This document shows, one piece after another, positions 2,374 to 36,674 of a stretch of DNA of 64,000 nt. Positions within the stretch are counted from its first letter, which is position 1. Every line of letters begins with the position of its first letter. The stretch lies in NCBI RefSeq assembly GCF_964355755.1, contig NC_092670.1:34770388-34834387 (forward strand). Direction: 5' to 3'. The position numbers were made by a program, and so were the translations under genes. This DNA comes from Antedon mediterranea. Its lineage: Eukaryota; Animalia; Echinodermata. Under the pieces are notes generated by a model. It was given only the letters and a program-made list of their open reading frames with translations, was not told the DNA's origin and ran no database searches.

Positions 2374-3528
2374 TTATCTTCCAATTGTGTAGTATACCTC
2401 TTCTTGCGCACTGGTCTGTGCAACATTTGAAGTGTCTTGGACATTTTCAGTGTTTCTTTGATAGTGCATGGCAGGTTCTCGTTTCTTGTGTTGTTTTCTC
2501 TCAAGTAGGTAAAGTAACACAATAGTAACAAAACCAAATACAGTAGTTGATGTTGCCAATAGTATGGTTAGTAATCCATCTTTGACTTTTATAACCTGAT
2601 GCTGTGTTGTGCATTGACATGGCAAATCATTGACAATGAATTCCATTGTGTCTGAGGCATTCTGTACATCAGTACTTACCAGACACTTGACAGTGTAAAT
2701 ACCAGCTGGTAAATTGTTGAAGCATCTTTCATTATTCTCTTGGTTGTGATCATCCACTGTACAATCTTCTCCATTTAAATTCCATTTGTAAATTTTCATT
2801 TTACCAGATCCACCTTCTGCATAGCATTTGAAACAGTTTTTATCCAAAGGTAGTTCAGGTCTTTCATACAATCTTTTTATTTTCACAATTAGTTGAGGGT
2901 GAACATTTAGTATTGTTGTGGAGCACCTATATCTTATTAAATTAGAAAGCGTTTTAAAAATGCAATAAAAGAATATACCATCTCCAGTTTGAAAACCAGT
3001 CAAAGTGTGGTTAAAACTTGAGTTAGCCAATACATTATGTGACTGTATAGTGTTGTTTCTTCCTTGGATCCATCCAGTTGTGAGTTTGTGTACCTCTTGC
3101 TCAGTTTGATCATCATTTTCATTTATTAAGATACATGTATTATTTACTTGTTTACCTTCAATGATGTTCTCAGAATCACATGAAGCTTTCAGCTTTGATT
3201 CTTTGATCTGATGAACTTGAAGATTTGATGGAACTAAACAATGTTTATTTTCACTATCTTGACATGTGTATATTCCTTCATTTTGTTGTACATTGAAAGA
3301 TATCAACAATTGACAATTCACTGTTTTGTCATAAGCAGGATATTTATGAGCATACCTGCCAAACTGTTTACTTGATGGTAGTATTTCTAGATGGTACAAA
3401 TTAGGGCTTTCTGTATCAGCTCTATAATTCCACCATACAGCATTATCAGTGACAATGACATCCAACATACAAACTACTGCTACATAGATAAGAAGAAGAG
3501 TTGACCTAGACATTTTGTAAAATATCAT
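2374..3528 (-). CDS. Ig-like type I membrane receptor, copy A1 (384 aa, single-exon CDS)
   Basis: Hydrophobic N-terminus (LLLIYVAVVCML); V-like motif LLISFNVQQNEGIYTC; second domain C..GW..TLTGFQTGDGIFFYC; third domain CFKC..GGSG..YKWNLNG..AGIYTVKCLV; TM LLTILLATSTTVFGFVTIVLLYLL followed by basic residues; tail ends EVYYTIGR. Confidence 0.8.
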   Translation of the reverse strand: MIFYKMSRSTLLLIYVAVVCMLDVIVTDNAVWWNYRADTESPNLYHLEILPSSKQFGRYAHKYPAYDKTVNCQLLISFNVQQNEGIYTCQDSENKHCLVPSNLQVHQIKESKLKASCDSENIIEGKQVNNTCILINENDDQTEQEVHKLTTGWIQGRNNTIQSHNVLANSSFNHTLTGFQTGDGIFFYCIFKTLSNLIRYRCSTTILNVHPQLIVKIKRLYERPELPLDKNCFKCYAEGGSGKMKIYKWNLNGEDCTVDDHNQENNERCFNNLPAGIYTVKCLVSTDVQNASDTMEFIVNDLPCQCTTQHQVIKVKDGLLTILLATSTTVFGFVTIVLLYLLERKQHKKREPAMHYQRNTENVQDTSNVAQTSAQEEVYYTIGR

Positions 3529-4434
3529 GAGATCTCAATGTTAATAGTATACTATAACCTATAACAAGGAAAAATAAAAATGTTTAGTTTCATAAATTAA
3601 TATAGGAAACTGCAGTATAACTATTGTTTCCTTCATTATATTATGATTTTATGACCTCAGATATTATTTTTAGATAATGTTGATTGTTGAACCTGTGGTT
3701 GTATAATAGCCATAGTTGTCCTATTTATACAAATACTTTGCCTTGAGAGTATCTTGGAGTATCTATTCTAAATTAGTACTACCAATTACAAATTAACTTA
3801 AAATATACAGAATGCCTATTTTTAATACCTTTTTTCATATTAATTTTAATTTAAATCTACTAAACTAGTTAAAACTGAGTATAAAACTAAGTATAATTAT
3901 ACATTAATTCAATGAAAAATTGAGTGCTCTATTTTTAACTCGGCTCCGCCTTGAAAATATTCTCACTTATTCTCCTACTTTAATATACATTGATTATTTG
4001 TATACTAACGAACAAAAATATATTGACGGTATTAGACACTTTTTCTATAGTCAACTCTAACAAAAATCAGACTTTTTGACGATTAGTAAATTTCAGTATT
4101 CACACTTTCATAAGTTTATAAGGTTTCAATTTCTTTCTTACTATTTAGTATTATATATTCTAAAAAGACTTTCTGGAAAATTCAAAATGTTTTCATCAGT
4201 TTTGCTACTAGGTCTGTTTTACTTTTTAGGTAAACTACTACTAAATATTCTGCATATGTATACCATTAGTGATTAATTTATGCTTAGGCTTAGTCTATTT
4301 TTAAATGCTAAAAACATATATTACATTGTGCTTTTTAAAAATTTCACAACAAACAATCTTATATAAACTTATAAAAAGCTTGCTTCGTACCTTCCAATTA
4401 TGTATAAAATTAAAATCAGCTTCTTCTTTTTTTA

Positions 4435-6044: not shown

Positions 6045-6414
6045 TACTGTCTGCTTGTTGAATGTTCTGTGACATCGATACTGCATTCATTTGTTTTATT
6101 ACTGAAGACATTTTCATCTTCATTGTCATCTATTCCATTCTGATGTCTGCTTGTTGAGAGTTCATCTGTGACATCGATACTGCATTCATTTGTTTTATTA
6201 CTGAAGACATTTTCATTTTCAGTGTCACCTATTCCATTCTGATGTCTGCTTGTTGAGAGTTCATCTGTGACATCGATACTGCATTCATTTGTTTATCACT
6301 GAAGACATTTTCATTTTCAGTGTCACCTATTCCATTCTGGTATCTGCTTGTTGAAAGTTCACCTGTGACATCGATACTGCGTTCATTTATTTTATTACTG
6401 AAGACAATTTCATC
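6045..6414 (-). repeat. ~99-bp (33-codon) tandem repeat, 4 copies, derived from receptor tail coding sequence
   Basis: ctgtgacatcgatac recurs at 6067, 6166, 6265 and 6363; the same unit is translated in B2 (NKTNEYSIDVT...). Confidence 0.85.
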
Positions 6415-8161
6415 CTAAGTTTTATCCACTTCATCAATACTATAAGAGTCATGTGTTTTATTATAAAAAATATCGACTTGATCTATTTCATCTTCTACTG
6501 TTTCTGGTTGTCTGTTGCTTGTGGATGGTTTCTCATTGTCTTTGATCTCATAATAGATCGGTTCACTGTCTTTATGTTGACTTCTTGAGGTTTGTCTAGT
6601 TGTCAGACTGTGTTTTTGTTGTTCATCTGTGATTTTGATACTGTTTCCAGTTTCATTACTATTTTTGTTTTCAGTTCGATCTTGTTTTTTCTGCTGCATG
6701 CTTGTCGATGATTCATCTGTGACATTGATACTGCCTCCAGATGTTTCATTAGTAAAGAAATGTTCATCTTCAGTTCTACTAACTCCTTTTTGCTGTCTGC
6801 TTGTTGAGGGTTCATCTGTGAATTCAATACTGTATTCATTTATTTTACTATTAGAAATCTTGACATCTTCCATTTCATCAGTGTTATATACCGCGTTATA
6901 TATGATTTGTGAAGTCGTTTGAGAATCTGTTTGTCTGTTGCTGCTTGTGGATGGTTTCTCATTGTCTTTGATCGCATAATATATCGCTTCACTGTCCGTC
7001 TGTTGGCTTCTAGAGGTTTGTCTAATTGTCATATTGTGTCCTTGTTACCATTGATCTCTAGAATTTCACTGTCGCTGCCACTAGTGTCACTATTTCTATG
7101 ATAATATATATTCTGTGGATTATTGTAGTGTTTTCTTTTTTGTAGGTAAAGTAACACCATTAAAAAAAAACCAAATTTGATTGTCGATGATACCAATAGT
7201 ATAGTTGTTAAGCCAGCTGTTGATGGTTCCAAAGCTAGGTCTAGAACTTCTTCATTTGCTTCTACAATTGATGTATAAGGATGAACGAACACATTTGTCT
7301 CATCTGACCTGTTCTGAACATCAGTACTCACCAAACACTTCACAGTGTAATTACCAGCTGGTAAATTGTTAAAACATTTTTTATCATTCTCTTGGTTGTC
7401 ATCAACATCTGTAATTTCTTCTCCATTTAAAGTCCAAATGTAAATTGTACTATTACCAGATCCACCTTCTGTGTAACATTTGAAGCAATTTCTATCCACA
7501 TGAACTTCTGGTGATTCGTTCAACCTCTTTATTTTCTTTATTTTATTTTATTTTCTTCATAATATATGATTGTGAAATAATCCTCCATGGAACAACAAAA
7601 GAATATCCCATCTCCAGCTTGGAAACCAGTTAATGTCTGATCAAAATATAAGGTGGTTCTTCTCTTTATATTATCATGTAGCTGCAAATTCATATATTGT
7701 CCTTGAATCCATCCCATTAATAATGATGTATTTAATGCAGATCGGGATCCTGTTGTGCATGTGACTCTAACTTCTTCTGTTTCAAAAATGTTTTTGAAAT
7801 TTTCACATTTAATATTTGTATACGTAAATTCAAAACCAGCTAACCAACTAACTTCAGTGGGAACCACATAATGTTTATCCTCATCATCTTGACATAAGTA
7901 TATTCCTATATTTTGTTGTACATTAAAATATATAAACAGATTACACTTCACTGTATTATTGTTGTCAGGAAATTTTCCATCAATTTGACCTCTGAACTGT
8001 TTACTTGTTGGCAGTATTGCTAGATAATGAATATTGGTAGTTAATTTTGGAGCCTCAGTTGCATGAGAGTGAGACCACATTACAACATTACCTGGTACAG
8101 TACTGACACCTGAGAAACAAACCACTGCTACAAAGATAATAAAAAGTGATGCTCTAGTCAT
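6415..8161 (-). pseudogene. Ig-like receptor copy B1, disrupted
   Basis: ORFs 7538-8176, 7029-7523 and 6415-7032 align end to end with B3. A ~40-bp segment is replaced by TTTTA-like filler, creating a stop near 7538, and there is a 7-bp deletion near 7048. Confidence 0.8.
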
Positions 8162-10008: not shown

Positions 10009-11472
10009 TCATTTTTGGTAACTACTGCCATACATGTCATTGGTAAAGAGCTCAACATGTTCAGTTTCAGTTGTACTTTGTTCTTTGTTTCTGGTTTTCT
10101 GAGATTCAGAACCGGTTACTTTCATCTTGCTTGTTGAAGGTTGATCATCATCTTTGATGTTATAATAGATTTGTTCTTCTGTTTTGTCTTTCTCTTGTCT
10201 TGAGGTTTGTTTTTTAATGTGGAAATAGCTTGAATCATCTTCTGTTTTCCTTAGTTTCTCTTGTTTGCTTTTAGATGCTTCATTTATGTCATAGTAGCTT
10301 TCTTCATCTTCTGTTGTTTTGTCTTTTCTATCTGAAAGTTTCTCACTATCTTTGATGTTGTAATAACTTGCTATTCCCTCTGTTTCTTTTTGTTTGCTTC
10401 CGGATGTTTTAATATTATCATCATGTTGTCTACTTTGAATTTGCTTCACAGTTTGTGAATACACATAGTGTTGTCTTCTTTTAAGTATATATAGCAATAT
10501 TAGTACAAACAGTAGCAGTAGGCCAGTTGTTGTTGCAAGTACAATAATAGTTATATCTGTATTATGCTTTTCTTGATTGAACGGTGTAGCTTTTGGCTCA
10601 ACACCCTTGACTGTGAACTCTATCTCATCTGACCTGTTCTGCACATCAGTACTCACCAGACACTTGACAGTATAGTTACCTGCTGGTAAATTGTTAAAGC
10701 ATTGTTCATCTTTTTCTAGAATGTCATCCTCTATAATTTCTTCTCCATTTAAAATCCAATTGTACATTTTATCACCAGATCCACCTTCTGTAAAGCACTT
10801 AAAGCAATTTTTATCCAAATGGACTGCTAGTGATTCATACAACCTTTTTATTCTCACAATTAATTGTGAGTAAACATTTAGTATTGTTGTGGAGCACCTA
10901 TACCGTATTGAATTGAAAAAAAACATTTTAAAAATACAATAAAAGAATATACCATCTCCAGTTTGGAAACCAGTCAAAGTGTGGTTAAACCTTGAGTTAG
11001 CCATTATATCATGTGACTGTATAATGTAGCGTCTTCCTTGAATCCATCCAGTTGTGATTTTATGTATCTTCCCCTCAATTTGATGAATGTTTTCATTTAT
11101 TAAGATACATGTGATATTTACTTGTTCATCTTCAACGATATTCTCAAAATCACATGAAGCTTTTAACTTTGGTTCATCGATTTGACGAACTTGATGACTT
11201 GATGGAACTAAACAATGTTTATTTTCACCATCTTGACATGTGTATATTCCTTCATTTTGTTGTACTTTGAAAGATATCAAGAGTTGACAATTCACTATAT
11301 TATTGTTATCAGGATATTTTTGAGTATGTTGACTTAATGTTAGTATTGCTTGATGATACAAATTAGGTCTGTCTGTATCGTAATAGTCCCACCATACAGC
11401 TGTACTTGCATCAGTGACTTTCAATATACAAACCACTGCTACAAAGATGAAGTGAAGAGTTGACCAAGTCAT
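10009..11472 (-). CDS. Ig-like type I membrane receptor, copy C (487 aa, uninterrupted)
   Basis: Same three-domain ectodomain; TM ITIIVLATTTGLLLLFVLILLYIL; tail with SYYNI, SYYDI, SYFHI, IYYNI and terminal LFTNDMY. Confidence 0.85.
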   Translation of the reverse strand: MTWSTLHFIFVAVVCILKVTDASTAVWWDYYDTDRPNLYHQAILTLSQHTQKYPDNNNIVNCQLLISFKVQQNEGIYTCQDGENKHCLVPSSHQVRQIDEPKLKASCDFENIVEDEQVNITCILINENIHQIEGKIHKITTGWIQGRRYIIQSHDIMANSRFNHTLTGFQTGDGIFFYCIFKMFFFNSIRYRCSTTILNVYSQLIVRIKRLYESLAVHLDKNCFKCFTEGGSGDKMYNWILNGEEIIEDDILEKDEQCFNNLPAGNYTVKCLVSTDVQNRSDEIEFTVKGVEPKATPFNQEKHNTDITIIVLATTTGLLLLFVLILLYILKRRQHYVYSQTVKQIQSRQHDDNIKTSGSKQKETEGIASYYNIKDSEKLSDRKDKTTEDEESYYDINEASKSKQEKLRKTEDDSSYFHIKKQTSRQEKDKTEEQIYYNIKDDDQPSTSKMKVTGSESQKTRNKEQSTTETEHVELFTNDMYGSSYQK

Positions 11473-13085: not shown

Positions 13086-15046
13086 TTAAGAAATTTCACC
13101 TTCAGTTAATTCAACTTCTTTCTGATGTCTGCTTGTTGAGAGTTCACCTGTGACATCGATACTGTATTCATTGGTTTTATTACTGAAGACATTTTCATCT
13201 TCAGTGTCACCTATTCCATTCTGGTGTCTGCTTCTTGAGAGTTCATATGTGACATCGATACTGCATTCATTTGTTTTATCCACTTCATCAATACTATAAT
13301 AATCATGTGTTTTATTATAAAAAATATCGACTTGTTCTATTTCATCTTCTACTGTTTCTGGTTGTCTGTTGCTTGTTGATGGTTTCTCATTGTCTTTGAT
13401 CTCATAATAGATCACTTCACTGTCTTTATGTTGGCTCCTTGAGGTTTGTATAACTGTCAGACTGTGTTTTTGTTGTTCATCTGTGATTTTGATTCTATTT
13501 CCAGTTTCATAACTATTTTCGTTTTCAGTTCGATCTTGTTTTTTCTGCTGCATACATGTCAAGGGTTCATCTGTGACATTGATACTGCCTCCAGATGTTT
13601 CATTAGTAAAGAAATGTTCATCTTCAGTTCTACTAACTCTTTTTTGCTGTCTGCTTGTTGAGGGTTCATCTGTGAACTCAATACTGTATTCATTTATTTT
13701 ACTATTAGAAATCTTGACATCTTCCATTTCATCAGTGTTATATACCGCATTATACATGATCTGTGAAGTTGTTTGAGAATCTGCTTGTCTGTTGTTGCTT
13801 GTGGATGGTCTCTCAAAGTCTTTGATCTCATAATATATTATTTCACTGTCTGTCTGTTGGCTTCTAGAGGTTTGTCTAATTGTCACATTGTGTTCTTGTT
13901 GCTGTATACCATTGATCTCTAGAATGTCACTGTCGCTGCCACTAGTGTCACTATTTCTATGATAATATATATTCTGTGGATTATTGTAGTGTTTTCTTTT
14001 GTGTAGGTAGAGTAACACCATTAAAAAAACCCAAATATGATTGTTGATGATACCAATAGTATAGTTGTTAAGCCAGCTGTTGATGGTTCCAAAGCTAGGT
14101 CTAGAACTTCTTCATTTGCTTCTACTGTACAATTGATGTATAAGAATGAAACGAACACATTTGTTTCATCTGACCTGTTCTGAACATCAGTACTCACCAA
14201 ACACTTCACAGTGTAATTACCAGCTGGTAAATTGTTAAAACATCTTTTATCATTCTCTTGGTTGTCATCAACATCTGTAATTTCTTCTCCATTTAAAGTC
14301 CAAATGTAAATTGTACTATTACCAGATCCACCTTCTGTGTAGCATTTGAAGCAATTTGTATCCACATGAACCTCTGGTGATTTGTTAAACCTCTTTATTT
14401 TTACAATTAATTGAGGATAGACCTTCTGTATCAATGTGTAGCACTCATAATATATGATTGTGAAATAATCCTCCATGGAACAGCAAAAGAATATCCCATC
14501 TCCAGCTTGGAAACCAGTTAATGTCTGATGAAAATATAAGGTTGTTCTTCTCTTTATATTATCATGTAACTGCATATTCATATATTGTCCTTGAATCCAT
14601 CCCATTAATAATGATGTATTTAATGCAGATCGGGATCCTGTTGTGCATGTGACTCTAACTTCTTCTGTTTCAAAAATGTTTTTGAAATTTTCACATTTAA
14701 TATTCGTATACGTAAATTCAAAACCAGCTAACCAACTAACTTCAGTGGGAACCACATAGTGTTTATCCTCATCATCTTGACATAAGTATATTCCTATATT
14801 TTGTTTTACATTAAAATATATAAACAGATTACAGTTCACTGTATTATTTTTGTCAGGATATTTTCCAAAAATTTGTCCTTTGAACTGTTTACTTGTTGGT
14901 AGTATTGCTAGACGATGAATATTATTAGTAGTAAATAGTTTAGGCGCATGAGAGTGAGACCACATTACAACATGACCTGGTACAATACTGACACCTGAGA
15001 AGCAAACCACTGCTACAAAGATAATAAAAATTAATGCTCTAGTCAT
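13086..15046 (-). pseudogene. Ig-like receptor copy B2 with a 1-nt frameshift in the TM poly-T run (may be intact if this is a sequencing error)
   Basis: ORFs 14021-15046 and 13086-14021 abut. B2 reads GGG TTT TTT TAA TG where B1 and B3 read GGT TTT TTT TTA ATG. Confidence 0.75.
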
Positions 15047-17640: not shown

Positions 17641-17754
17641 CATCCTGATCCGTGGGGACAAACATTCTTTCACTTTAATACTATTAGTCATTTGTTTGTT
17701 TTTTTTTATTAGAAATCGTAACATGTTTCATTGATGTTATATTTCTCATCAATA

Positions 17755-17895
17755 ATCTCTGTCTACACTATATCAACCTAGTTTAACAAAAAAGTGTGAT
17801 GTGCCCAAATATGGTAGTGATATGACATCATCATGTTCATATATGTGCACATCACATTTTTTTGTCACATAAAGTTTGATAGTGTAGACAGAGCT
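17755..17895. mobile_element. ~140-bp MITE family (TIR agctctgtctacactatcaaact)
   Basis: Inverted ends; further copies at 31676-31798, 44355-44502 and 46966-47134; partial copies near 30121, 36075 and 39397. Confidence 0.85.
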
Positions 17896-20699: not shown

Positions 20700-22423
20700 T
20701 TAAAAAATATCGACTTGATCTATTTCATCTTCTACTGTTTCTGGTTGTCTGTTGCTTGTGGATGGTTTCTCATTGTCTTTGATCTCATAATAGATCACTT
20801 CACTGTCTTTATGTTGACTTCTTGAAGTTTGTCTAGTTGTCAGACTGTGTTTTTGTTGTTCATCTGTGATTTTGATACTGTTTCCAGTTTCATTACTATT
20901 TTTGTTTTCAGTTCGATCTTGTTTTTTCTGCTGCATGCTTGTCGATGATTCATCTGTGACATTGATACTGCCTCCAGATGTTTCATTAGTAAAGAAATGT
21001 TCATCTTCAGTTCTACTAACTCCTTTTTGCTGTCTGCTTGTTGAGGGTTCATCTGTGAATTCAATACTGTATTCATTTATTTTACTATTAGAAATCTTGA
21101 CATCTTCCATTTCATCAGTGTTATATACCGCGTTATACATGATTTGTGAAGTCGTTTGAGAATCCGTTTGTCTGTTGCTGCTTGTGGATGGTTTCTCATT
21201 GTCTTTGATCTCATAATAGATCACTTCACTGTCCGTCTGTTGGCTTCTAGAGGTTTGTCTAATTGTCACATTGTGTCCTTGTTGCTGTATACCATTGATC
21301 TCTAGAATTTCACTGTCGCTGCCACTAGTGTCACTATTTCTATGATAATATATATTCTGTGGATTATTGTAGTGTTTTCTTTTGTGTAGGTAAAGTAACA
21401 CCATTAAAAAAAAACCAAATATGATTGTCGATGATACCAATAGTATAGTTGTTAAGCCAGCTGTTGATGGTTCCAAAGCTAGGCCTAGAACTTCTTCATT
21501 TGCTTCTACAATTGATGTATAAGGATGAACGAACACATTTGTTTCATCTGACCTGTTCTGAACATCAGTACTCACCAAACACTTCACAGTGTAATTACCA
21601 GCTGGTAAATTGTTAAAACATCTTTTATCATTCTCTTGGTTGTCATCAACATCTGTAATTTCTTCTCCATTTAAAGTCCAAATGTAAATTGTACTATTAC
21701 CATATCCACCTTCTGTGTAGCATTTGAAGCAATTTGTATCCACATGAACCTCTGGTGATTCGTTAAACCTCTTTATTTTTACAATTAATTGAGGATAGAC
21801 CTTCTGTATCAATGTGTAGCACTCATAATATATGATTGTGAAATAATCCTCCATGGAACAGCAAAAGAATATCCCATCTCCAGCTTGGAAACCAGTTAAT
21901 GTCTGATCAAAATATAAGGTTGTTCTTCTCTTTATATTATCATGTAGCTGCATATTCATATATTGTCCTTGAATCCATCCCATTAATAATGATGTATTTA
22001 ATGCAGATCGGGATCCTGTTGTGCATGTGACTCTAACTTCTTCTGTTTCAAAAATGTTTTTGAAATTTTCACATTTAATATTCGTATACGTAAATTCAAA
22101 ACCAGCTAACCAACTAACTTCAGTGGGAACCACATAGTGTTTATCCTCATCATTTGACATAAGTATATTCCTATATTTTGTTGTACATTAAAATATATAA
22201 ACAGATTACAGTTCACTGTATTATTTTTGTCAGGATATTTTCCAAAAATTTGTCCTTTGAACTGTTTACTTGTTGGTAGTATTGCTAGACGATGAATATT
22301 ATTAGTAGTAAATAGTTTAGGCGCATGAGAGTGAGACCACATTACAACATTACCTGGTACAGTACTGACACCTGAGAAGCAAACCACTGCTACAAAGATA
22401 ATAAAAATTAATGCTCTAGTCAT
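20700..22423 (-). pseudogene. Ig-like receptor copy B3 with an early frameshift and a late nonsense change
   Basis: 1-nt deletion near 22154 (catcatttgac vs catcatcttgac in B1 and B2); TAT to TAA at 20700; tail with VIYYEI twice and IMYNAV. Confidence 0.78.
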
Positions 22424-23794
22424 TCTACTATATTAACCTCTTCAAAATTCTATGTGATTTTAGTGTAATTCAACTATTGTGATCTTGTAAAATACGATCA
22501 AATGAATTATGTATAAATAAATTGTGCCTGGCGTCTAAATTGGAAACAAATTATTATGCTGCTTTCGGTTGATAAACATTTATCTTATTTCTTGATCTTA
22601 TATTATAGATGATTTATAGAGTATCTAGAGATTCTATTTTTATATATTTGATTAGTAGTCTACTTTAAACTCTAATTATTATTTTTGAACGATTGTGTAA
22701 CAAAATTAAAATAGCAGAATATTTTCAAAAAAGCAATGTAAAAAAATTGATCCCTTTAATGTATCCTATATATATGATATATAATTTTCATAGCATGAGC
22801 AAAGTTTATTTTAACAATTTGTGATCTGTATTAGATATCAACCGTAGTAATTCTAGTGTCTAAACCAAGAGCTTGTAACTTATTAATTAGAAAAGGATAA
22901 AATGTATGAAGGATGGACATATTAATAGAACAATTACGAAATTTCCAATTTCCACACGCACTCTCATCGTACAGCCATAGTGAATTGACTGTGACGTCAC
23001 TGATGCATTGGAAAATCTACTGGGTGAGTTTTCACTGAGTAAGTTGTTAACATGCAAGTATGTATTCGTCAAATTATTAGATCTAGTAATACTTTATTAA
23101 TGTTTATCGCTTTTATATCTGGGCTGTATCACGTTACAGGGACCAAAATGTGTAGTTATATTCTGTCTTTATTTCCAAAAAATACAAAAATACTGACCAA
23201 CTTTACATCTCATGGCCAAATTGAATATAAAAAACATCTAAAGTCTATATATATCGTGCCTGCTTACCTGGATAAACACGACATAAGCCCTTTTCCACGA
23301 AGTGCGAAACAATTACGAAAAGAAGAATTTAGCGGTAGCTCACGTGACCTCCATGATAAATGGGACAGTCCGCTATAGCGCCCTCTAGTGGGACCACTCC
23401 CACGTAATACCGTCATCATTTCTTTTCGTATCGTCGTAGTTGACAGACACGAAGTTTTTTCGAAGAGAAGACGAATTTCAAGGAATTCTACAGACTAGAA
23501 TAGTCTAGCTAGCCGAGGCTAAGTTTAACTTTACATTATTTGATACGTTGGAATACGTTGCCGTTGTTGTTTAAACAAGGCAGAAATATCGTTTCTTATT
23601 GTTATTTTGAGAATTTGATACGTTGCAAACCGTTGACTCGCCTAGCAAGCGAGTCAGAAATAGCTTTAGAGTTCACCGGGGTCACCGGCCGAGTGTAGGC
23701 AACGCAATACAACAGAATCAGTCAGGCGCTAGGTTAAGAGACTGTTTGTTAGGTAGTTGATTGTGTGTCTGTTAGACTGGTGTTTTGCACCATC

Positions 23795-26688
23795 ATGCCT
23801 AAGCAAGAGTGTGTCCAGTGTAGGGGTCCGCGGACGACGGTGAAATGGGATCGCCACATGCGATGTATTAAGTGCCGTACGTGCAATCAGGATAACCTGT
23901 GTGACGTTTGCGTTCGCTGGACGCCAGCCAAGTTTGCGTCGCTTCCGCGGCCCGTGGAACGCACTGTTGAGGTCGGTGTTCCGGAGGAGTCCGCGCCTGT
24001 GGCGGCTCCAGTGGTAGCTACGCACGATGTCGTGCCACGCGAGGAAGAGCCTGTGGCTTCCGTTCCACTTGCGAAGGAGGTTATTCTCGGCGCCGCGCCT
24101 GTTCCCGCTGCGGCCTCTGCAGCCCCGGACCCTAATGAGTTGTCTCCGGCGTTGCTGCATGCCATTGCGGCGGCGGTAAGGGCTTTACCAAGGGACGAGC
24201 CTACGGTAGCCCCAGCCCAGCGTCCTCCGATTCCGTATTATCCGGTGCCCCCTCCTCAGACACCACTACCGCCCTTTTCTGAGGGTGCTTCGATGGAAGA
24301 CGACTATTTGTCTGATCGGACTATGGTCACGCTCTCGGATGAGGAGAGAGCCGCGTCGCTTAGGGGGCCCGGTGAGGAGGGATTACAGGCGCTCGTGAAC
24401 AGAGTTCTTCCGGCGGTACTGGCCTATCTTGGAATCGACTACTCGCTCCGCGAGCCTAAGCCTACGCCTTCAACTAAGCGGTTTTCTACATTCGGCGTGC
24501 GTACGCCTCTTAGGAAAAGCACTACCTGTCCGGTGGTGCTTCTCGACCAAGAACTGGTCGACCGCTTAGACATGTTTGCGCGCGACTCAACAACGACACG
24601 TAGAGCCGCACCGTACATTCTCTCGTCTGCTTTTCCGGTGCCGTCAGCGCAATTTGATAAGTACATCATTGCACCGGGAGTGCCTGATGCAGCCAAAGAC
24701 CGCGTCCGAGAGGACCAGGGCGTAGAGGCTGGCAAGACCAACTACTTGGCTCCGAAGGCTGCTAAGACAGAAGAGACGCTTCTCGCAGTTGATAGAGCGG
24801 CCCTCGAGACAGTACGCGTGACGTCTATTTCTGGTTATCTCTTGTCGTTCCTGGCGGACCCGGAACACCCTAGAGAGCGCGATGACGAGGTCATCGCTTT
24901 GCTGCAGCAAATAACTGGTCTTATCGCTGATCAGCAAGCATTTATTTCCGTTACGTCGGCCGCTGCTCGCCGGGTCAACGTCCTCCAGGGGACAGATATC
25001 GCGCCAGCGCAATATCGTAGATTCACTACATCGGAATCTTTCGGCGCTAAGGATCTCTTCTTCGGGAGTTTCTCCCAAAAGGAAGATAAGTGGGCGCGTG
25101 AGCGGGAGGCACGTCGTGAAACTCTAGCCGTGGACGTTCAGGACCATCTAGACCGCCTCCCCCTTTTCCGGCTCCAGTACCGCCAACGCAACCGCCAGTA
25201 CCGACACCGGCGCGTCCTGATACGCAGGCTTCTACTTCTTCCCGCGTTCGCACCCCACATGACATCAACAGATATCCCCGACCTGCACGAGGCAGGCCCG
25301 GAAGATATGACGCCAGCCATAAGAGCGGCAGGCGTCCGGGTGCGTTCGCGCGTCGCCGGTGACGCGATCGGTACGCCCGTCCCCAACATCGACGGGCAGG
25401 TGGGGGGTCGCCTAAGACGGTTCGCCCGAGTGTGGGAGACCCTGTCGGAGGACAGGTGGATTCTCGCCACCATAAAAAACGGCTACAGCATCGAATTTAC
25501 GAGCCCCCCGGTGAGCGGGGGCGCTCGGTCGACAAGAATTCCGCCAGAGCCTCTAAAGAGATATGCGCTTCTGGACGGCCTCAATTCTCTACTCCAAAAA
25601 GGAGCAGTAGAACCAGTTGACGAACGATGCGCCGTCTCGGGACACGAGTCGACCGTCTTCTTCACAGAAAAGAAGACAGGCGACTGGCGACCTATTTTAA
25701 ACCTGAGGAGTCTAAACAGGCGGTTTATTCGGCCCCAAAGGTTTCGGATGGAGACAGTCTCATCCATCCTTCTGGGGCTAAGACGAGGAGACTGGGCAGC
25801 CTCGATAGACCTGAAAGATGTGTACTTTCACGTTCCTATCGCAGAGGCAGATCGACGTTGGCTACGTTTCAGAATCCTCGACCAATTGTACCAATTCGTC
25901 GCTTTGCCGTTCGGCCTATCGACGGCTCCACGCGTATTTACACGCATAGTCAGAACGCTGGCGTCGTTCTTCTACAAACATGGAATAAGAGTATTCATGT
26001 ATCTCGACGATTGGTTGGTCGTGGCCCAGTCCAAGGACAGGCTGATGAGCAGTCTACAATATGTCCTTCTCGTAACGGAACAGGCAGGTTTCATTGTCAA
26101 TCGGGAGAAGTCGTGCCTGGTGCCGACACAGCTCCCGTTATACCTCGGAGCACAAATAAATCTCGTGACGGGCTTGGCGTGTCCATCCCAACAACGCATC
26201 GCGTCTGCAATGAGTGCAGTACGCAATCTAATATCTGCTCGTGCTCCGACGGCTTACGAATGGCTCAGAGCACTGGGTTGTCTGGCCAGCTTCGTTGCCT
26301 TAGTTCCGTATTGCCGGCTACGTATGAGACCTTTACAGCTGCATCTGCTGGCTCATTACCGACCGCACATAGACTCCCTACACAAAGTGGTTCCGTCGAA
26401 TGCATTCATTCAGACGCATCTCGAATGGTGGCTGGTAGAAGGCAGGTTGACTGTGGGAATGCCGATTCAAAAATCTTTGCCGGACGTCCGTATAGAGACA
26501 GACGCATCCGAGACAGGCTGGGGCGGTTGCTCCAAGGCACTCCGGCCTTTGGACGGTCGAGGAGGCGCGCTCCCACATCAACCTCCTAGAACTCTGGGCA
26601 GTCGTCAGGACCTTGAAGGCCCTTCGACCTCACGTGTCCGGTCGTCACGTCCTTATCCATTCCGACAACACAACAGTGGTAGCATATA
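23795..26688 (+). CDS. DIRS gag plus reverse transcriptase/RNase H (frameshifted and interrupted)
   Basis: Cys/His-rich gag N-terminus; RT motifs VGGRL, WRPILNLR, IDLKDVYFHVPI, LPFGLSTAPRVF, YLDDWL; RNase H TDASETGWG, then HINLLEL and SDNTTVVAY in a shifted frame. Confidence 0.9.
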
Positions 26689-27451
26689 CAGTCGACTCCG
26701 CCTAAGTCGAATCTAATGGGACCGGTATAAAAATTCGAGTTACGCGAACTTCGACTTACAGATTTGCCAAAAAAATGCTAGGCCTAGGCCTAGGTTCACT
26801 CACTAGCTGCACTATATGGCTAGGCCTAGGACCCTGCCCTGTCGCGATGAGCCTTCTTGAATTGAATTTGCTTAGCTAGCTAGCTAGGCCTAAAAAATGC
26901 TAAGCCTCTTTATCGGCAATGATAAACTGTATTTTTCCGAAACAATACAAAAACGTATAATAAATACATTTCGATTCTTATTCTCGGTGTTTATTGCCAT
27001 TTGCCTAGCACAAAATAGGTACCCACAAAACGCCGCTCAAGTTCTCAACTCGACTGAAACAACTCAAACACTATATACACACTAGCGCGAGTTGTAGGAC
27101 GCCGCCTATACTATACAACCTGCTTGAGAGAACCGATATGGTCCCACATTATCCCCTCTGTTGTTTGTTTATCGAATTACGTACATTTCATCATGGAGGT
27201 GGTTTCATCGGCTTTTTTAACGCGTTGTTGCCGCGTAATTTGTGACTTCGACTTATACGAAATAAATCACTAAAGAATGTGTGTATTCGGACCGCAAAAA
27301 GACGTCGACTTAGACGAATTTCGACTTAGAAAAATTCGACTTAGAAATAAAAATTACACAGTAATGTATAGGAAAGAATTGGGACTTTCCTAAAAATTCG
27401 ACTTTCGCGATTTTTCGACTTACGCGAATTCGACTTAGGCGGAGTCGACTG
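26689..27451. mobile_element. Tc1/mariner (pogo/Tigger-like) MITE, 763 bp, nested in the DIRS RNase H
   Basis: Perfect 23-bp TIR CAGTCGACTCCGCCTAAGTCGAA and TA TSD. Removing it restores DNTTVVAYINRQGGTRS. Confidence 0.92.
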
Positions 27452-28147
27452 TATAAATCGTCAGGGAGGCACGAGGTCACCGACGTTATGCTGTCACCGA
27501 CGTTATGCTTCCACCTCTGGAGACTGATGATGTGGTGCATAGGCTACAACATCAAACTCTCGGCTGCCCACATTGCGGGCAGCCTCAACATTGTGGCGGA
27601 CGCTCTGTCCCGACAAACACTTTGTCCCACGGAATGGCGCCTTCTACCCAGCATTGCCACACTGATATTCGACCACTTCGGGCGGCCTCATATAGATCTG
27701 TTTGCGACGTCAGACAACACACAGCTCCCGACCTTCTGCACAAGGTTTCGGGATGCACGTGCGTGGGCGGTGGATGCCCTATCCATACCGTGGGACGGAC
27801 TATGGGCTTATGCGTTTCCACCGATCTCACTAATACCAACTGTTCTGACGCACATTCAGCGCCATCCTTGCCGGGTCCTTCTGATCGCCCCGGGCTGGGC
27901 TCGACAAGCGTGGTATCCACTGCTTCTCGACCTGCTCTACGATCATCCCCTGCGTCTTCCAGTTCAAGAGGATCTGCTGACGCAGGGCCGAGCTGTGTTC
28001 TCACTACAGAACCTACAATCCCTGCGCCTGACTGTATGGCCATTGTCAGGGATCAGCTCCGAGACTCAGGCATTCCAGATGGCCCTGCCGCCCTCGCGGC
28101 GAAATCTCGTCGGGAATCTACTCTTACCGTCTACAATAGCCGATTAA
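27452..28147 (+). CDS. DIRS RNase H C-terminus plus adenine-methyltransferase-like domain
   Basis: HIAGSLNIVADALSR (end of RNase H); IDLFA and WAYAFPP motifs of the DIRS MT domain. Confidence 0.85.
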   Translation, partial: YKSSGRHEVTDVMLSPTLCFHLWRLMMWCIGYNIKLSAAHIAGSLNIVADALSRQTLCPTEWRLLPSIATLIFDHFGRPHIDLFATSDNTQLPTFCTRFRDARAWAVDALSIPWDGLWAYAFPPISLIPTVLTHIQRHPCRVLLIAPGWARQAWYPLLLDLLYDHPLRLPVQEDLLTQGRAVFSLQNLQSLRLTVWPLSGISSETQAFQMALPPSRRNLVGNLLLPSTIAD

Positions 28148-29064
28148 AGCATTTCTTTACATGGTGCAGGCGCCAACAAATAACACCAGGGTTGGTTACC
28201 CTTGGTCAAGTATGCGCCTTCCTGCATTACCTATTTGAGTCAGGTCTTCAGGTCCGCACCATTTCAGGCTATAGGTCCGCCATTGGGGCGATGACACCAA
28301 CACTGAAAGACGGTTCTACGATTTCGTCATCCTCCGTTATCACTCAGCTGATACGGGGGATGTTCAGACAACGACCTCCAGTCAAGGTCTTGATTCCTCG
28401 ATGGGATGTCAACGTCGTTCTAGCCGCTCTTACACGCCCGCCATTTGAGCCTATGAGTAAGGCTTCTCTTTACAATCTCTCGCTGAAGACGGCGTTCCTG
28501 CTCGCATTGTCATCGTGCAAACGCCGAGGCGAGCTGCACGCTCTTTCCTTAGAACCAGGGCATGTGAGGTTCGAGCGAGGCGGCGTGAGGCTAGTGTTTA
28601 GGAAAGATTTCCTAGCAAAAACTCAGACGTTGAAATATTCGCCGCCGGCTGTGTTCGTCCCCACCATCACATCTTACTCGGCGGTTGACGGAGACAAACT
28701 TTGGTGCCCAGTGAGGGCCCTCAAGTGGTATATCCACCGCACAAAGACAAATAGAGACGGAGTGTCTCACCTGTTTGTCACCTCTGTTCCACCACACCGC
28801 GCCGCAGCTAAATCGACCATAGCAAGGTGGGTCGTATCTACAATTCAAAACGCTTACACGTCATCGGACACACCGCCGCCGGCACACATGCATCAATTGC
28901 GCGCGGTTGCCACTTCGTGGGCGTTGTTCGCGGGTGTCCCTGTAGCTGACATTATGGAAGCGGCATGGTGGCGAACACAGTCTACATTCACCTCTTACTA
29001 TCTTTCGGATGTGTCCGCTAACCTAGCTCCAGTGGCGACAGCAGTACTGAAGCCTCGTCTATAG
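27505..29064 (+). CDS. DIRS tyrosine recombinase
   Basis: Catalytic pattern R (KRRGEL), HxxR (HQLR) and Y (FTSYYL), plus the CPVRAL motif; overlaps the pol frame. Confidence 0.92.
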   Translation: MLPPLETDDVVHRLQHQTLGCPHCGQPQHCGGRSVPTNTLSHGMAPSTQHCHTDIRPLRAASYRSVCDVRQHTAPDLLHKVSGCTCVGGGCPIHTVGRTMGLCVSTDLTNTNCSDAHSAPSLPGPSDRPGLGSTSVVSTASRPALRSSPASSSSRGSADAGPSCVLTTEPTIPAPDCMAIVRDQLRDSGIPDGPAALAAKSRRESTLTVYNSRLKHFFTWCRRQQITPGLVTLGQVCAFLHYLFESGLQVRTISGYRSAIGAMTPTLKDGSTISSSSVITQLIRGMFRQRPPVKVLIPRWDVNVVLAALTRPPFEPMSKASLYNLSLKTAFLLALSSCKRRGELHALSLEPGHVRFERGGVRLVFRKDFLAKTQTLKYSPPAVFVPTITSYSAVDGDKLWCPVRALKWYIHRTKTNRDGVSHLFVTSVPPHRAAAKSTIARWVVSTIQNAYTSSDTPPPAHMHQLRAVATSWALFAGVPVADIMEAAWWRTQSTFTSYYLSDVSANLAPVATAVLKPRL

Positions 29065-29133
29065 GTATGTACTGGTAAAATTTTGTTTCTTGTCACCCAC
29101 CGCCGACTAGATATCTAGTCCGGTGCTACACTG

Positions 29134-29230
29134 GCTTATGTCGTGTTTATCCAGGTAAGCAGGCACGATATAGACTACACAAACCAGAAATGGTGTTGGT
29201 AGTCTATGAGTGCCGCTTACCTGGATAAAC
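29134..29230. repeat. DIRS internal complementary region (ICR)
   Basis: Reverse complement of the left terminus (…aggcacgatatagac) joined to the reverse complement of the right terminus (tacacaaaccagaaatgg…). Confidence 0.9.
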
Positions 29231-31798
29231 GCCCGCCCGCTGTCCCCTCAGACAAGAGGTCTTGAGAAATGATGACGGTATTACGTGGGAGTGGTCCCAC
29301 TAGAGGGCGCTATAGCGGACTGTCCCATTTATCATGGAGGTGAGCTACCGCTAAATTCTTCTTTTCGTAATTGTTTCGCACTTCGTGGAAAAGGGCTTAT
29401 GTCGTGTTTATCCAGGTAAGCGGCACTCATAGACTACCAACACCATTTCTGGTTTGTGTAAGAATCAAGACAGCGTTAAAAATGTAAAAACCTTATAAAA
29501 AGTTTAAACAAACATAGAAAACATCAAAAGTCAAAAAAGGCAAGAGCAGTCGCAAGTCAGCAGGGAAGGTATTATTGAATTATATTTAGAAGTTGACCCA
29601 GCTCACGCGTCGATATCTGGGTCATGCTACAGTAAATCTAAGAACCAAAATGCATACTGTAGTTACTTTTCAGGAGGTTTCTTCCTTTTGTAAGAATCAA
29701 TAATCTATTCACAACTATATTTACAAGTCTAATTTCCACTGTCTACTGTTGTTGGGTTGTTAACTCAAACGCCTAGAATAAAGCATAAATGTACTAATAA
29801 TATCATGCCCGCTCATGAAACAAAAAGTGACAAAGATTCACGATTAACAAATGTTTAATTTACAAATACATCTTGGTCCGTCAAAAACATTTTGTGGTAC
29901 AATTTAGATTGTTGAAGTTATGGTTTAGACAGACTATAATTATATTCATTAGGGACCAAACTCGTCATAGAGATTTCCATCTTCAGTGTCATCTACTCAT
30001 TTATATCTGTTAAGAGTTCATCTGTCACTTTAGTACTACATGTATTTTTTTATTTCATTTGTTTTTTTTATATTAGAAATCATAACATGTTTCATTGATT
30101 TTGTATTTCTCATCAATGATCTGTATACATATCAACCTAGTTTGACAAAAAAAGTATAGATGATTTATAGAGTATCTAGAGATTCTATTTTTATTTATTT
30201 GATTAGTAGTCTACTTTAAACTCTAATTATTATTTTTGAACGATTGTGTAACAAAATTTAAATAGCAGAGTATTTTCTAAAAAGCAAGGTAAAAAAATTG
30301 ATACTTGTAAATGTATCCTATATTAATTTCCATAGCATGTGAGCAAGATTTATTTTAACAATTTGTGATCTAAATACTGTATTTAGATATGAACCAATGT
30401 AATTCTATTATCTAAACCAAGAGCTTGTAACTTATTAATTAGAAAATGATAAAATGTATGAAGGATGCACATATCAGAACAAATTTCCCATTTTCACACA
30501 CGCTCTCGCCGTATAGCCATCGTGAATTCACTGTGACGTCACTGTTGCATTAGAAAATATACTGAGTGAGTTTTCATTGTTGTTAACATGCAAGTAGGTA
30601 TTCGTCAAATTACTAGATCTAGTAATGTTTTACTACTTCTCGCTTTGTATCTGGTTACAATAATAGTAATAATGTGTATAATATTCTCTCTTTATTTCCA
30701 AAAAATACAAAAATATTGACTTTATATCTTGTGCCAAATGGCCAAATTGCATGTAAAAATCATGCCAAAAATACCTCATAAAATGTAAGATAATCAAGAC
30801 AGCATTAAAAATGTACAAAAAGTTTTAAAAAACAAAAGAAACAGGCATAGAAAACATCAAAAGTCAAAAAAGGCAAGAGCAGTAGCAAGTCAGCAGGGAA
30901 GGTAAAATTGAATCAAAATTGAGAATTTAATAATTTGATAAACAACGGTACAGGAATATTAGCAAATCTAGTTGCTTTAGTGACTAGTTGGGTAATTTTG
31001 TTTTTATTTCTTTTAAATTCCTACCATGACAACCAACCTAGTCGGTGGAATAAGATCAGCAGTCTGTTTGATCTTGGAAAGATCCTCAGCACACTTCCGA
31101 CAATGCTCTACCCTTCTATGAGCCAACGTTGCAAGTTTAAAAAATTCAAAGGCGCCAAAGTATGAAGAGTAACAATTACCTAAAATAATTCAGCAAGCCC
31201 ACTTTTGCACATTTTCATTATAATCACTTAATCTACTGGTCAAGCCAGGATCCCATACTACATCAACATACTCCATAACTGGAATAATATACCCACAAAA
31301 GGTCCTTTTAAGCTCTATACCAAATCAAATCGTTTTAATGATCGTAAGAGAATCTGGGTCATGCTACAGTAAATCCAAGAACCAAAATGCGTAGTTACTT
31401 TTCAGAAGGTTTCCTCCTTTTGTAAGAATAAACAATCCATTGACAACTATATTTACAAGTCTGTAAACGCCTAGAATAAAGCATGTACTAATAATATCAT
31501 GCCCACTCATGAAAAAAAAGGTGACAAAGGTTCACGATTAACAAATGTTTTAAACTACGAATACATCTTGGTCCGTGGGGACAAACATTCTTTCACTTTA
31601 ATACTATTAGTCATTTGTTTTTTTTTTTATTAGAAATCGTAACATGTTTCATTGATGTTATATTTCTCATCAATAATCTCTGTCTACACTATATTAACCT
31701 AGTTTAACAAAAAAGTGTGATGTGCCCAAATATGGTAGTGATATGACATCATCATGTTCATATATGTGCACATAAAGTTTGATAGTGTAGACAGAGCT

Positions 31799-33627
31799 TT
31801 ACATCTGTGAATCATCGTTTTGTGTTTCTTCTGCTTGTCTGTTGTTGCTTGTTGATGGTTCTTTAATATCATAATAGATCACTTCACTGTCTGTCTGTTG
31901 GCCTCTAAAGGTTTGTCCAATTGTCACATTGTGTCTTTGTTGTTGCATTGCATGGACATCTGGAATGTCACTGTCACTATTGTCACTGTTTCTTCTATAA
32001 TAAACAGGCTCTGGCTTCTGGTGCTTTCTTTTGTGTAGGTAAAGCAGCACCATTATAAGAAACCCAAATATGGTTGTTGATGATGCCAATAGTATAGTTA
32101 TTAAACTAGGGACTCTTTCACTTGCTTTTACAATTGATGTAGAGGGATAAACAAAAACATTTATCTCATCGGAACTGTTCTGAACATCTGTAATCACCAG
32201 ACACTTGACAGAGTAAGTACCAGCGGCAGCTGTTAAATTGTTAAAGCATATTTCATCTTTTTCTTTGTTGTCATCTGTCAGAATTTCCTTTCCATTTAAA
32301 GTCCAATTGTATAGTGTCTTATTACCCGATCCCCCTACTGTGTAGCACTTGAAGCAATTTGTATCCAACTGGATCTCGGGTGTTTTGTACAACATTTTTA
32401 TTTTTACAGTTAATTTAGAGAGAAGAATAGGTTTGAGGATAAGATCTTTTACTGTAAATTCTATCCCATCTGAACTGTTCTGGACATCAGTAAACACCAG
32501 ACACTTGACAGTGTAATTACCTGCTGGTAAATTGTTGAAGCATCTTTCATCATTCTCTAAATTGTCATCATCCTCTATAATTTCTTCTTCATTTAAAATC
32601 CAATTGTACATTTTCTTATCACCAGATCCACCTTCTGTGAAGCACTTAAAGCAATTTTTATCCAAATGGACTTCTGGTGATTCATACAATCTTTTTACTT
32701 TCACAATTAATTTAGAAAGAGGAATAGTTTTGAGGAAAAGATCTTTGACTGTAAACTCTATCTCATCAGACCCGTTCTGTACATCAGTAATCACCAGACG
32801 CTTGACAGTGTAATTACCTGCTGGCAAATCCACAAAGCATCTTTCGTCTTTCTCCTGGTTGTCATTATCCTCTGTAATAGGTTTTTCTCCATTTAAAGTC
32901 TAACTGTAAATTTTCTTACTTTCAGATCCACCTTCTGTGTAGCACTTGAAATAGTTTGTATCCACATTACAAAGTTCAAGCGTTTCATACAATCTTTTTA
33001 TTTTCACAATTAATCGAGAATAAACATTTAGTATTGTTGTGGAGCAGCTATACCACATTGAATTGAAAAATATTTCAAAAGTACAATAAAAGAATATACC
33101 ATCTCCAGTTTGGAAACCAGTCAAAGTGTGGTTAAACCTTGAGTTACTCATTACATCATGTGACTGTATAGTGTTATTTCTTCCTTGGATCCATCCAGTT
33201 GTGTATACCTCTTGCTCATTTTTCTCAGCATTTTCATCTTTTAAGATACACGAGACGTTCGCTTGTTCACCTTCAATGATGAAAAATCACATGTAGGTTT
33301 CAACTTTGGTTCTACTGTTGATTGATATACTGAATCTGATGGAACTAAATAATGTTTATTTTCACTATCTTGACATGTGTATATTCCTTCATTTTGTGGA
33401 GCATTGAAAGATATCAAGAGTTGACAATTCACTATGTTATTGTTATCAGGATATTTGCCATGAGTATTCCCATCAAACTGTTGACTTATTGGTAGTATTG
33501 CTAGACCATTCAAATTAGGCCACTCTGCAACAGCTGTATAAAACCACAATACAGCTGTACTTGCATCAGTGACATCCAACATACAAACCACTGCTACAAA
33601 GATGAGATGAAGAGTTGATCAAGTCAT
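31799..33627 (-). pseudogene. Ig-like receptor copy D with three tandem copies of the membrane-proximal domain
   Basis: C-like N-terminus with TGG to TGA at codon 3, a frameshift near 33270 and a stop at 32900; the FKC..GGS..Y.W.LN..AG.Y.VK unit occurs three times. Confidence 0.8.

Positions 33628-34684: not shown

Positions 34685-36674
<1,990 letters not shown>

Follow-up and report, generated by a model that had tools for sequence, protein, structure and literature searches.

A tandem array of single-coding-exon genes for predicted Ig-fold, receptor-like proteins with tyrosine-motif tails in the feather star Antedon mediterranea

The array and its seven copies

The window analysed in this study, by which we mean the whole stretch of 64,000 nucleotides of contig NC_092670.1 (positions 34,770,388 to 34,834,387, assembly GCF_964355755.1) from the feather star Antedon mediterranea, carries on its minus strand, from position 33627 down to 2374, an array of seven co-oriented paralogous genes for receptor-like proteins, transcribed in the order D, B3, A1, B2, C, B1 and A2 (Table 1). 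What is real and new at this locus is an undescribed, lineage-restricted array of immunoglobulin (Ig)-fold genes with one coding exon each, likely nested in XPB, with tails swapped between copies and a short first domain. Seven co-oriented paralogs had been proposed in a preliminary description of this DNA made from its letters, and tBLASTn, a BLAST comparison of the window with itself and a six-frame listing of open reading frames (ORFs) all bear this out.

In each copy a single exon holds the coding sequence, which runs from a signal peptide through beta-sandwich domains and one transmembrane (TM) helix into a tail with tyrosine motifs. The one-exon layout given in the preliminary description is correct for the coding sequence, taken as one continuous ORF from ATG to stop, but an intron could still lie in the 5' untranslated region (UTR). 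Copies D, A1, C and A2 share a pyrimidine tract followed by AG about 45-100 nt 5' of the ATG, which is a possible acceptor for a 5'-UTR intron, although a weak one in AT-rich DNA. Hydropathy profiles of C, A1 and A2 each contain an N-terminal hydrophobic segment and one TM segment, and it is in these three copies that the signal peptide and TM helix described beforehand have been confirmed. In C the domains lie at about residues 24-90, 103-201 and 205-288, followed by a TM segment at about 309-331 and a tail of 156 residues; in A1 the TM segment is at about 310-333 and the tail has 77 residues. Three domains per copy is likewise the general rule, but the ectodomain of D has five units, with domain 3 tripled at a 297-bp period.

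Copies C, A1 and A2 each have a frame that is open from start to stop codon, and the other four are broken. Because the longest stop-free run in 50 shuffles of positions 1-23000 was only 163 codons (mean 105), the receptor ORFs are far beyond what chance would give. The earlier count of three uninterrupted and four disrupted copies stands, but two of the three need qualification. The stop codon of A1 adjoins a miniature inverted-repeat transposable element (MITE)-like sequence, which has likely shortened the tail because tail-like sequence resumes past the element. The stop of A2 falls three codons past its YYTI motif. The A2 tail looks frameshifted, and its remainder is likely encoded by a second frame (2253-2381) that runs on for 43 codons and contains two additional tyrosine motifs. 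The single-base lesions of B2, B3 and A2 may be fixed, specific to one haplotype or errors of assembly. At the 3' end of every B copy a 92-99-bp tandem repeat (6048-6413, 12960-13279, 20399-20651) encodes a tail unit of about 33 residues; it is in frame in B2 and past the stop in B1 and B3, so the length of the B tail varies by gain and loss of repeats. At the left edge of the window, the B-like upstream sequence may mark the beginning of a further, more diverged copy just beyond it.

Table 1. Receptor-like copies, their fragments and other mapped features of the window (ITIM, immunoreceptor tyrosine-based inhibitory motif)
Feature	Position	Strand	Remarks
Copy D	31799..33627	-	pseudogene; codon 3 is a stop, 4 nt deleted near 33281, further stop at 32900-32902; one strict ITIM, VIYYDI
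Copy B3	20700..22423	-	broken; 1-nt deletion at 22154 (domain 1); late stop TAA at 20700-20702 where B1 and B2 have TAT
Copy A1	17896..19128	-	open, 410 aa; a further ATG lies upstream in frame at 19143; three domains after a signal peptide
Copy B2	13086..15046	-	broken; net loss of 1 nt in a T run in the TM-coding part near 14030
Copy C	10009..11472	-	487 aa; sole copy without sign of lesion
Copy B1	6415..8161	-	pseudogene; 22-nt deletion near 7537, 7-nt deletion near 7046
Copy A2	2374..3513	-	open, 379 aa (from aligned ATG); in-frame upstream ATG at 3528; tail site QEEVYYTI, no strict ITIM
Remnant of a further B copy	29969..30460	-	upstream sequence of B type (87-97% to the flanks of B1-B3) plus part of the B tail repeat; coding part gone
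TM-end and juxtamembrane fragment, 73 bp	1263..1335	-	89% identical to A2
B-like upstream sequence	1..154	-	71% like the region directly 5' of the B2 start codon
XPB/ERCC3, last four coding exons	34685-34805, 35265-35413, 35796-35918, 36555-36674	+	PDB match E 1.6e-19
DIRS-type tyrosine-recombinase retrotransposon	23250..29460	+	between D and B3; separate from the receptor genes
MITE-like inverted-repeat element, about 145 bp	17754..17896	.	adjoins A1 stop codon; inverted arms 18 and 39 nt

XPB is a DNA-repair and housekeeping gene, and the translations of all four of its exons here are exact substrings of residues 612-780 of P0022. A search of the window for XPB residues 1-611, by tBLASTn with three full-length XPB proteins and with short helicase motifs, gave no credible match. 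The later three introns measure 0.38-0.64 kb. Since the four exons are undecayed and the first is preceded by a proper acceptor, the array is most simply read as lying in its entirety, and antisense, within what is likely one XPB intron of at least 34.7 kb, the alternative being that these exons belong to a detached 3' half of XPB. This position, the DIRS element and the tail swapping set out below are additions to what the preliminary description contained.

Relatives and ectodomain fold

As full relatives of the family we found only two unnamed A. mediterranea proteins and a fragment that is likewise unnamed. The word-based search, with A1 as query, returned one relative among 1222 candidates, P0001 (XP_071957072.1), which is 48% identical. 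A profile search of 1.84 billion representatives gave 17 matches at E 0.001 or better, comprising P0001, which was part of the profile, P0002 (XP_071950092.1, E 1.2e-58), P0007 (an unnamed fragment of 133 residues, E 1.9e-7) and 14 long multi-domain proteins that match over short stretches only. Both P0001 and P0002 are annotated as "uncharacterized protein" and have the three-domain cysteine pattern of the array copies, which makes them true family members. P0002 aligns with C from signal peptide to tail at 175 of 505 positions (35%), and has a signal peptide, TM segment and tail and a longer domain 1 than the array copies; its gene is probably on the same chromosome as XPB. The P0001 model, of 249 residues, lacks both signal peptide and TM segment. 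Ten of the 17 profile matches were looked up, and ten of the 17 were scanned with Pfam. The named proteins from outside Antedon are Ig-repeat proteins of fish and oyster and one from Toxoplasma, and a further match is an SdrD repeat protein of bacterial type; the name Alr is absent from the ten that were looked up, and no direct sequence comparison with Alr was run. Shorter relatives numbered none among 32 candidates, and related loci none among 42 pattern matches in viral contigs and none among 408 in metagenome contigs. Exact look-up found none of ten window ORFs in the protein collection. A literature search, with most subscription journals outside its reach, found no description of this receptor family. 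The view that the genes belong to no named family and are specific to a lineage, which the preliminary description had put forward, is upheld by these results, and by its sequences the family appears to be Antedon-restricted as far as the searched libraries reach.

The ectodomain of C was modelled with AlphaFold2 from an input of 13 sequences, which gave a signal helix followed by three all-beta domains (pLDDT 71.8, pTM 0.66; of five models, three reached at least 64), with blocks over residues 103-288 mostly at pLDDT 70-92. The best Foldseek matches of this model are tandem-Ig receptors, namely IgLON5 (E 3.1e-6), PTP-delta, carcinoembryonic antigen (CEA), Sidekick and CD22. In VIA-align, residues 99-290 superpose at Z 8-10 on domains of CD22 and Dscam and on antibody constant and PKD domains, the best being CD22 D2-D3 (Z 9.8-10.0, 160-168 residues aligned, root-mean-square deviation 6.2-6.5), with Dscam1 Ig7 as an example for a single domain (Z 8.6, 83 aligned, 2.9); for a predicted model, scores of this size show the fold but no particular family. 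The ectodomain profile also matches CEA (E 1.4e-5), and nine of the ten ESM Atlas rows listed for the ectodomain carry Ig families of Pfam at scores of 0.89-0.90. At the curated cut-off, however, none of the seven receptor ORFs matches the Pfam families ig, V-set, I-set, C1 or C2, and neither do P0001, P0002 or P0007.

The tandem Ig folds that the preliminary description expected from structure prediction and Foldseek on the ORF of C are thus predicted for domains 2 and 3, which have an Ig-type beta-sandwich fold in the model, but not in full for domain 1, which is short and has five predicted strands. The core of domain 2 is kept, with C122, W143 and C179 of C in predicted strands 117-126, 136-145 and 172-183, and these residues are conserved in the window copies, P0001 and P0002; we infer a disulfide between the two cysteines, and the domain has an extra pair of cysteines beyond this core. 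In domain 3, C226 and W239 are in place and the F-strand cysteine (C271) is shifted, standing four residues after the tyrosine and not two, in what we take to be a PKD-like strand pattern; a weak Pfam match of this domain to Y_Y_Y is below the cut-off. Domain 1 is modelled at pLDDT 48-71 in context. Its last three strands (the E-F-G part) align to CEA, the Atlas rows that name a family for it give V-set or ig at 0.89-0.90, and its mature chain has no conserved B-strand cysteine; we tentatively regard domain 1 as a probable truncated Ig domain. The cysteine at position 15 was considered as the missing B-strand residue and rejected, being in the hydrophobic N-terminal helix and not kept in P0007. 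Aligned alone by VIA-align against 48,161 chains, domain 1 reached a best Z of 3.5 and none of 5 or above, figures that are meaningless at the pLDDT of 45.6 that it has alone. A homodimer prediction with domains 1-2 of C scored 0.00, with the fold of the partner uncertain.

Tail motifs, exchange between copies and selection

Motifs were scored with the definitions of ITIM, hemITAM (half of an immunoreceptor tyrosine-based activation motif, ITAM) and core YxxI/L/V given in PMC12582321, a strict ITIM being I/L/V-x-Y-x-x-I/L/V. All four motifs quoted in the preliminary description are present, VIYYEI and IMYNAV in B2 and B3, VIYYDI in A1 and D, and IIYNAV in B1. Its claim of an ITIM-like motif in every copy is not sustained, because strict ITIMs occur in five of the seven copies, and A1 is the only one of the three open copies to have one: A1, D and B1 contain one each and B2 and B3 three each, while C and A2 contain none. 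Compared with 2000 shuffles of each tail, the three strict ITIMs of B2 and of B3 exceed the expected 0.34 (P 0.002) and 0.16 (P<0.0005), and the single motifs exceed 0.04 in A1 and D (P 0.042) and 0.11 in B1 (P 0.106), P values that are generous because the repeats arise by internal duplication and the patterns were picked after the sequence had been viewed. The tail of B2 is the longest (304 residues), and that of B3 is also long and built of repeats. In the tail of C, four acidic-Y[Y/F]xI repeats with a spacing of about 22 residues, against 0.06 expected in shuffles, include one hemITAM-like site (DEESYYDI, with Ile for Leu) and two repeats with a YxN pattern. The one hemITAM-like site of A2, QEEVYYTI, likewise has Ile for Leu and has its first acid replaced. 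The tails had been described as acidic, which is clearly so only for the B copies (60 D/E to 33 K/R in B2) and not for C (31 to 29) or A2 (6 to 7). The motifs are real and enriched, but to judge from their sequences they are labile and ambiguous in sign.

The copies are mosaics of one another. A1 and A2 share 268 of 283 ectodomain residues and differ in TM segment and tail; their DNA matches at 94-100% between the start codon and about 18326/2711, where domain 3 ends, and at 44-69% from there on. Copy D is a chimera whose 5' part is closest to C and whose TM segment and tail are 99-100% identical to those of A1. In the self-BLAST comparison each repeat unit starts with a B gene and ends with an A or C gene, B3 with A1 matching B1 with A2 at 93-95%. 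Chimeric copies, repeated doublets and four broken copies agree with the birth-and-death turnover that had been proposed for the locus, and the sequences of A1 and A2 would fit a paired-receptor pattern that arose as copies recombined within a single exon.

Codon models (GY/MGK), fitted to unjoined in-frame pieces (7, 7 and 8 for domains 1, 2 and 3), gave omega values of 0.39/0.61, 0.55/0.63 and 0.27/0.34 for the three domains. All of these are below 1 (p 0.046 to <1e-5), and therefore the family was functional while it diverged; the past purifying selection (omega 0.27-0.63) was strongest in the membrane-proximal domain 3. Among C, A1, A2 and D only, omega is indistinguishable from 1 in domains 1 and 2 (0.61-1.10 and 0.80-0.88) and remains at 0.28-0.35 in domain 3 (p<1e-5), and the pairwise value of A1 and A2 is 0.81 (interval 0.46-1.69). 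Values near 1 in distal domains and low values in proximal ones form a gradient that is typical of recognition receptors, but relaxed constraint yields the same gradient, and recombination violates the model of a single tree. A claim of positive selection, considered because of pairwise NG86 ratios of 1.2-1.7 in domain 1 of the C, A and D copies, was rejected: these ratios come with low synonymous divergence (dS) and bootstrap intervals that include 1, and maximum likelihood gives 0.61-1.10 (p 0.25-0.83).

Interpretation, rival explanations and surroundings of the array

We consider it very probable that the array is a once-functional family of Ig-fold receptors under birth-and-death evolution, and we lean, with much less assurance, towards non-self recognition with tyrosine signalling as its job. 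A founder without coding introns, probably a retrocopy, would have landed antisense in an intron of XPB, the single exon being the one pointer from which we infer a retrotransposed origin, and unequal crossing-over would have multiplied it. Breakpoints near the end of domain 3 would join one ectodomain to the TM segment and tail of another copy, and recombination could in this way achieve at the DNA level the exchange of parts that Alr and FcoR obtain through exon shuffling or splicing. The SH2 consensus V/I-x-pY-x-x-I suits SHP phosphatases, acidic-pY-x-x-I suits Src and Syk, and pY-x-N suits Grb2. The ligand of the variable distal domains might then be foreign or on a cell surface, the acidic-YYxI sites would be substrates of a Src-family kinase, the V/I-x-pY-x-x-I/V tails of A1, D and B could recruit an SHP-type phosphatase and damp the response, and the hemITAM-like tails of C and A2 could recruit SH2 proteins of the Syk, Src or Grb2 type. 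A1 (ITIM) and A2 (hemITAM-like) would be the clearest pair of opposite sign.

An immune receptor function is a reasonable suggestion drawn from architecture, and several observations weigh against it. An inhibitory reading fits only the tails of A1, D and B, those of C and A2 being better read, by their motifs, as hemITAM-like or core YxxI. None of the seven tails contains an ITAM or a strict hemITAM ([ED]3-x-Y-x-x-L), the C and A2 sites having Ile and not Leu, and the TM segments that were read contain no K, R, D or E and so offer no charged residue for an ITAM adaptor. The tail of P0002 has no YxxI/L/V motif even though the protein aligns to C from end to end. Most strict ITIMs are in dead copies, with four of the seven broken and two of the three open ones apparently shortened in the tail. 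No domain shows positive selection under the codon models, domain 1 folds poorly alone (pLDDT 45.6), and the fold, at Z of only 8-10, matches adhesion and neural proteins as much as immune ones.

Among known systems, the paired Ig receptors of vertebrates (KIR, LILR, SIRP, CEACAM, CD22/Siglec and the fish NILT, NITR and DICP) combine near-identical ectodomains with different signalling tails and are multi-exon; the best matches of the array by fold and by profile are CD22 and CEA, but at only 10-17% identity, a likeness at the level of the fold. According to PMC12582321, the FcoR genes of Botryllus are clustered type I receptors of the Ig superfamily (IgSF) in an invertebrate deuterostome, with tails of ITIM, hemITAM(-like) and core YxxI/L/V type, inhibitory and activating motifs that are swapped between alleles or isoforms, and copy number that changes in two-gene units. 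The same paper describes FcoR as multi-exon, with motifs swapped by splicing or between alleles, and as paired with an FF gene that lacks tyrosines, whereas the array has one coding exon, would swap by recombination and carries tyrosine motifs in both members of its B and A/C doublet; we found no sequence link between the two. The Alr proteins of Hydractinia, as described in 10.1101/2022.03.04.482883, resemble the array in having Ig domains that have diverged beyond recognition by Pfam, at most three Ig-like domains with TM segment and tail, many pseudogenes, mosaicism at the level of domains and an ITIM in few tails. There, however, every domain, extracellular spacer (ECS) and TM segment has its own exon, the ECS is Fn3-like, ITAMs occur and the core disulfide is missing, in contrast to the single exon, absent ITAM, kept Cys/Trp core of domain 2 and short domain 1 of the array. 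The array is not a member of Alr or FcoR, both of which are multi-exon. A parallel in gene layout comes from the Toll-like receptors (TLRs) of sea urchins, also echinoderm single-exon receptors in tandem arrays with lineage-specific turnover and pseudogenes (67 of 253, or 26%); they are LRR-TIR and not Ig-fold proteins, form a far larger family and have documented expression in coelomocytes and gut (PMC3367398). An intronless FREP of Aplysia is noted in PMC11999971. By analogy, the array would work like FcoR, Alr and the vertebrate paired receptors and be built like the sea urchin TLR arrays.

The same Ig-fold proteins could serve adhesion or recognition outside immunity, whether between gametes at fertilisation or in neural, skeletogenic or regenerating tissue, with the tyrosine repeats as a generic scaffold of the Src/Grb2 type. 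We consider this unlikely, though less so than the other alternatives. Its structural neighbours do include IgLON5, Sidekick, contactin, nectin-like proteins, NCAM and Dscam, the tail of C lacks a strict ITIM and contains two YxN sites, and P0002 is without motifs. Retrocopies are also often expressed in the gonad, and gamete-recognition proteins evolve fast, but high turnover, pseudogenes in four of seven copies and swapped tails are unusual for conserved adhesion molecules. These same features match clustered immune families, as the accounts of the sea urchin TLRs (PMC3367398) and Alr (10.1101/2022.03.04.482883) describe them. It is distinctly less probable that a once useful family is now silent or decaying here, with open frames that persist through recent duplication and conversion. 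The four broken copies, the seemingly cut tails of A1 and A2, the separate lesion of each B copy, the transposon insertions throughout and an omega indistinguishable from 1 in the youngest comparisons (A1 with A2, and domains 1 and 2 of C, A and D) would all follow from such decay; but C is free of lesions over 487 codons although its dS to A1 is about 0.3, domain 3 is under purifying selection within C, A and D (omega 0.28-0.35, p<1e-5), and the B2, B3 and A2 lesions might belong to one haplotype.

We find it very improbable that the locus is a true allorecognition (histocompatibility) locus like Alr or the Botryllus fuhc locus, with alleles matched between individuals, and the suggestion of allorecognition in the preliminary description is unsupported. 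Feather stars are solitary and are not known to fuse naturally. Clustered unusual IgSF genes, pseudogenes, domain shuffling and the mixture of ITIM and hemITAM-like tails would suit such a locus, as would a two-gene unit that recalls the FF/FcoR pairs of PMC12582321, but the gene structure is unlike that of either system, and both genes of the doublet are tyrosine-tailed, unlike FF. Least credible of all is an endogenous viral element, in which intronless genes for Ig-like glycoproteins came from a large DNA virus and were then amplified. The genes are indeed intronless, tandem and confined to one lineage, which is how viral families of Ig-like glycoproteins look, and crinoid viruses are poorly sampled; a Pfam match to adenovirus E3 is weak (E 0.021) and covers only the TM segment. 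The viral structures that match are generic beta-sandwiches of phage and herpes proteins at 8-15% identity, beyond which there is no match to a viral or transposon protein; no viral ORF lies between the copies, relatives are found on two different Antedon contigs (30.6 and 41.4 Mb), and the GC3 of 0.26-0.27 is like that of two of the three host XPB exons measured (0.27, 0.30 and 0.45).

If the array is a receptor family of the kind that we prefer, it bears on how such systems arise. Vertebrates, a tunicate and a cnidarian are known to have clustered Ig receptors with tyrosine motifs, which appear to have arisen separately in each, and a case from crinoids, the earliest-branching living echinoderms, would fill a gap on the other branch of the deuterostomes and test the convergence of this design. 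The single-exon layout makes population typing and cloning easy, and A1 and A2 are a natural experiment with one outer part and two tails. The lack of Pfam matches and the absence of the window ORFs from the protein collection suggest that nested antisense genes may escape annotation in other invertebrate genomes. A bolder proposal, which we regard as speculative and rather doubtful, is that this is the first paired-receptor system of an echinoderm, a crinoid-specific single-exon array lying antisense in an XPB intron, in which recombination within the exon yields inhibitory (ITIM) and activating (hemITAM-like) forms of one ectodomain, with copy number and intact alleles that vary between individuals, and with a ligand bound through the truncated, non-canonical Ig domain.

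The DIRS element contains an ORF of 973 residues with a reverse transcriptase (PF00078, E 5e-21) and one of 519 residues with weak tyrosine-recombinase matches, and an internal complementary region is at 29133-29230. Because its inverted termini are 100% identical over 82+77 nt it is very young. Nested in the DIRS element (26685-27455), between the reverse transcriptase ORF and the ORFs downstream, is an element of 770 bp whose inverted ends of 28 nt are perfect and which contains short internal repeats. The MITE family beside A1 is also found at about 31673-31799 (next to D), at 44354-44503, at about 46960-47135 and at 30117-30150, and its target-site duplication is too unclean for assignment to a superfamily. 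Read coverage was available for the region 30000-49900 in four runs (X1, X2, X4 and X5), the DNA runs being from one sample; the summed depth of the MITE family is thousands of times the single-copy level in all four, and the family is probably among the commonest repeats of the genome. Run X5 is RNA-like, with a depth of 135.8 at three presumed exonic positions of the armadillo-repeat gene and none at two presumed intronic ones. The X5 contigs extend over portions of D and of the flank of D (31101-31714, 32524-33079) and over two XPB introns (35390-35803, 35891-36582); they are unstranded, and XPB pre-mRNA explains them equally.

Rfam gave no matches in the window. Open frames of 94 and 134 codons on the minus strand (50606-50887 and 52182-52583) have protein-like composition and no Pfam match, and may be transposon remnants. 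An exon at 63484-63936 (minus strand), also without a Pfam match, is presumably from enkurin. The multi-exon armadillo-repeat gene at 41700-44312 on the plus strand (PF00514) we take to be SPAG6, and the multi-exon gene for a proteasome subunit at 46200-47760 on the minus strand (PF00227), which has high depth in run X5, is presumably that of beta type 3. The last exons of a serine carboxypeptidase gene (PF00450) are at 60900-61733 on the plus strand.

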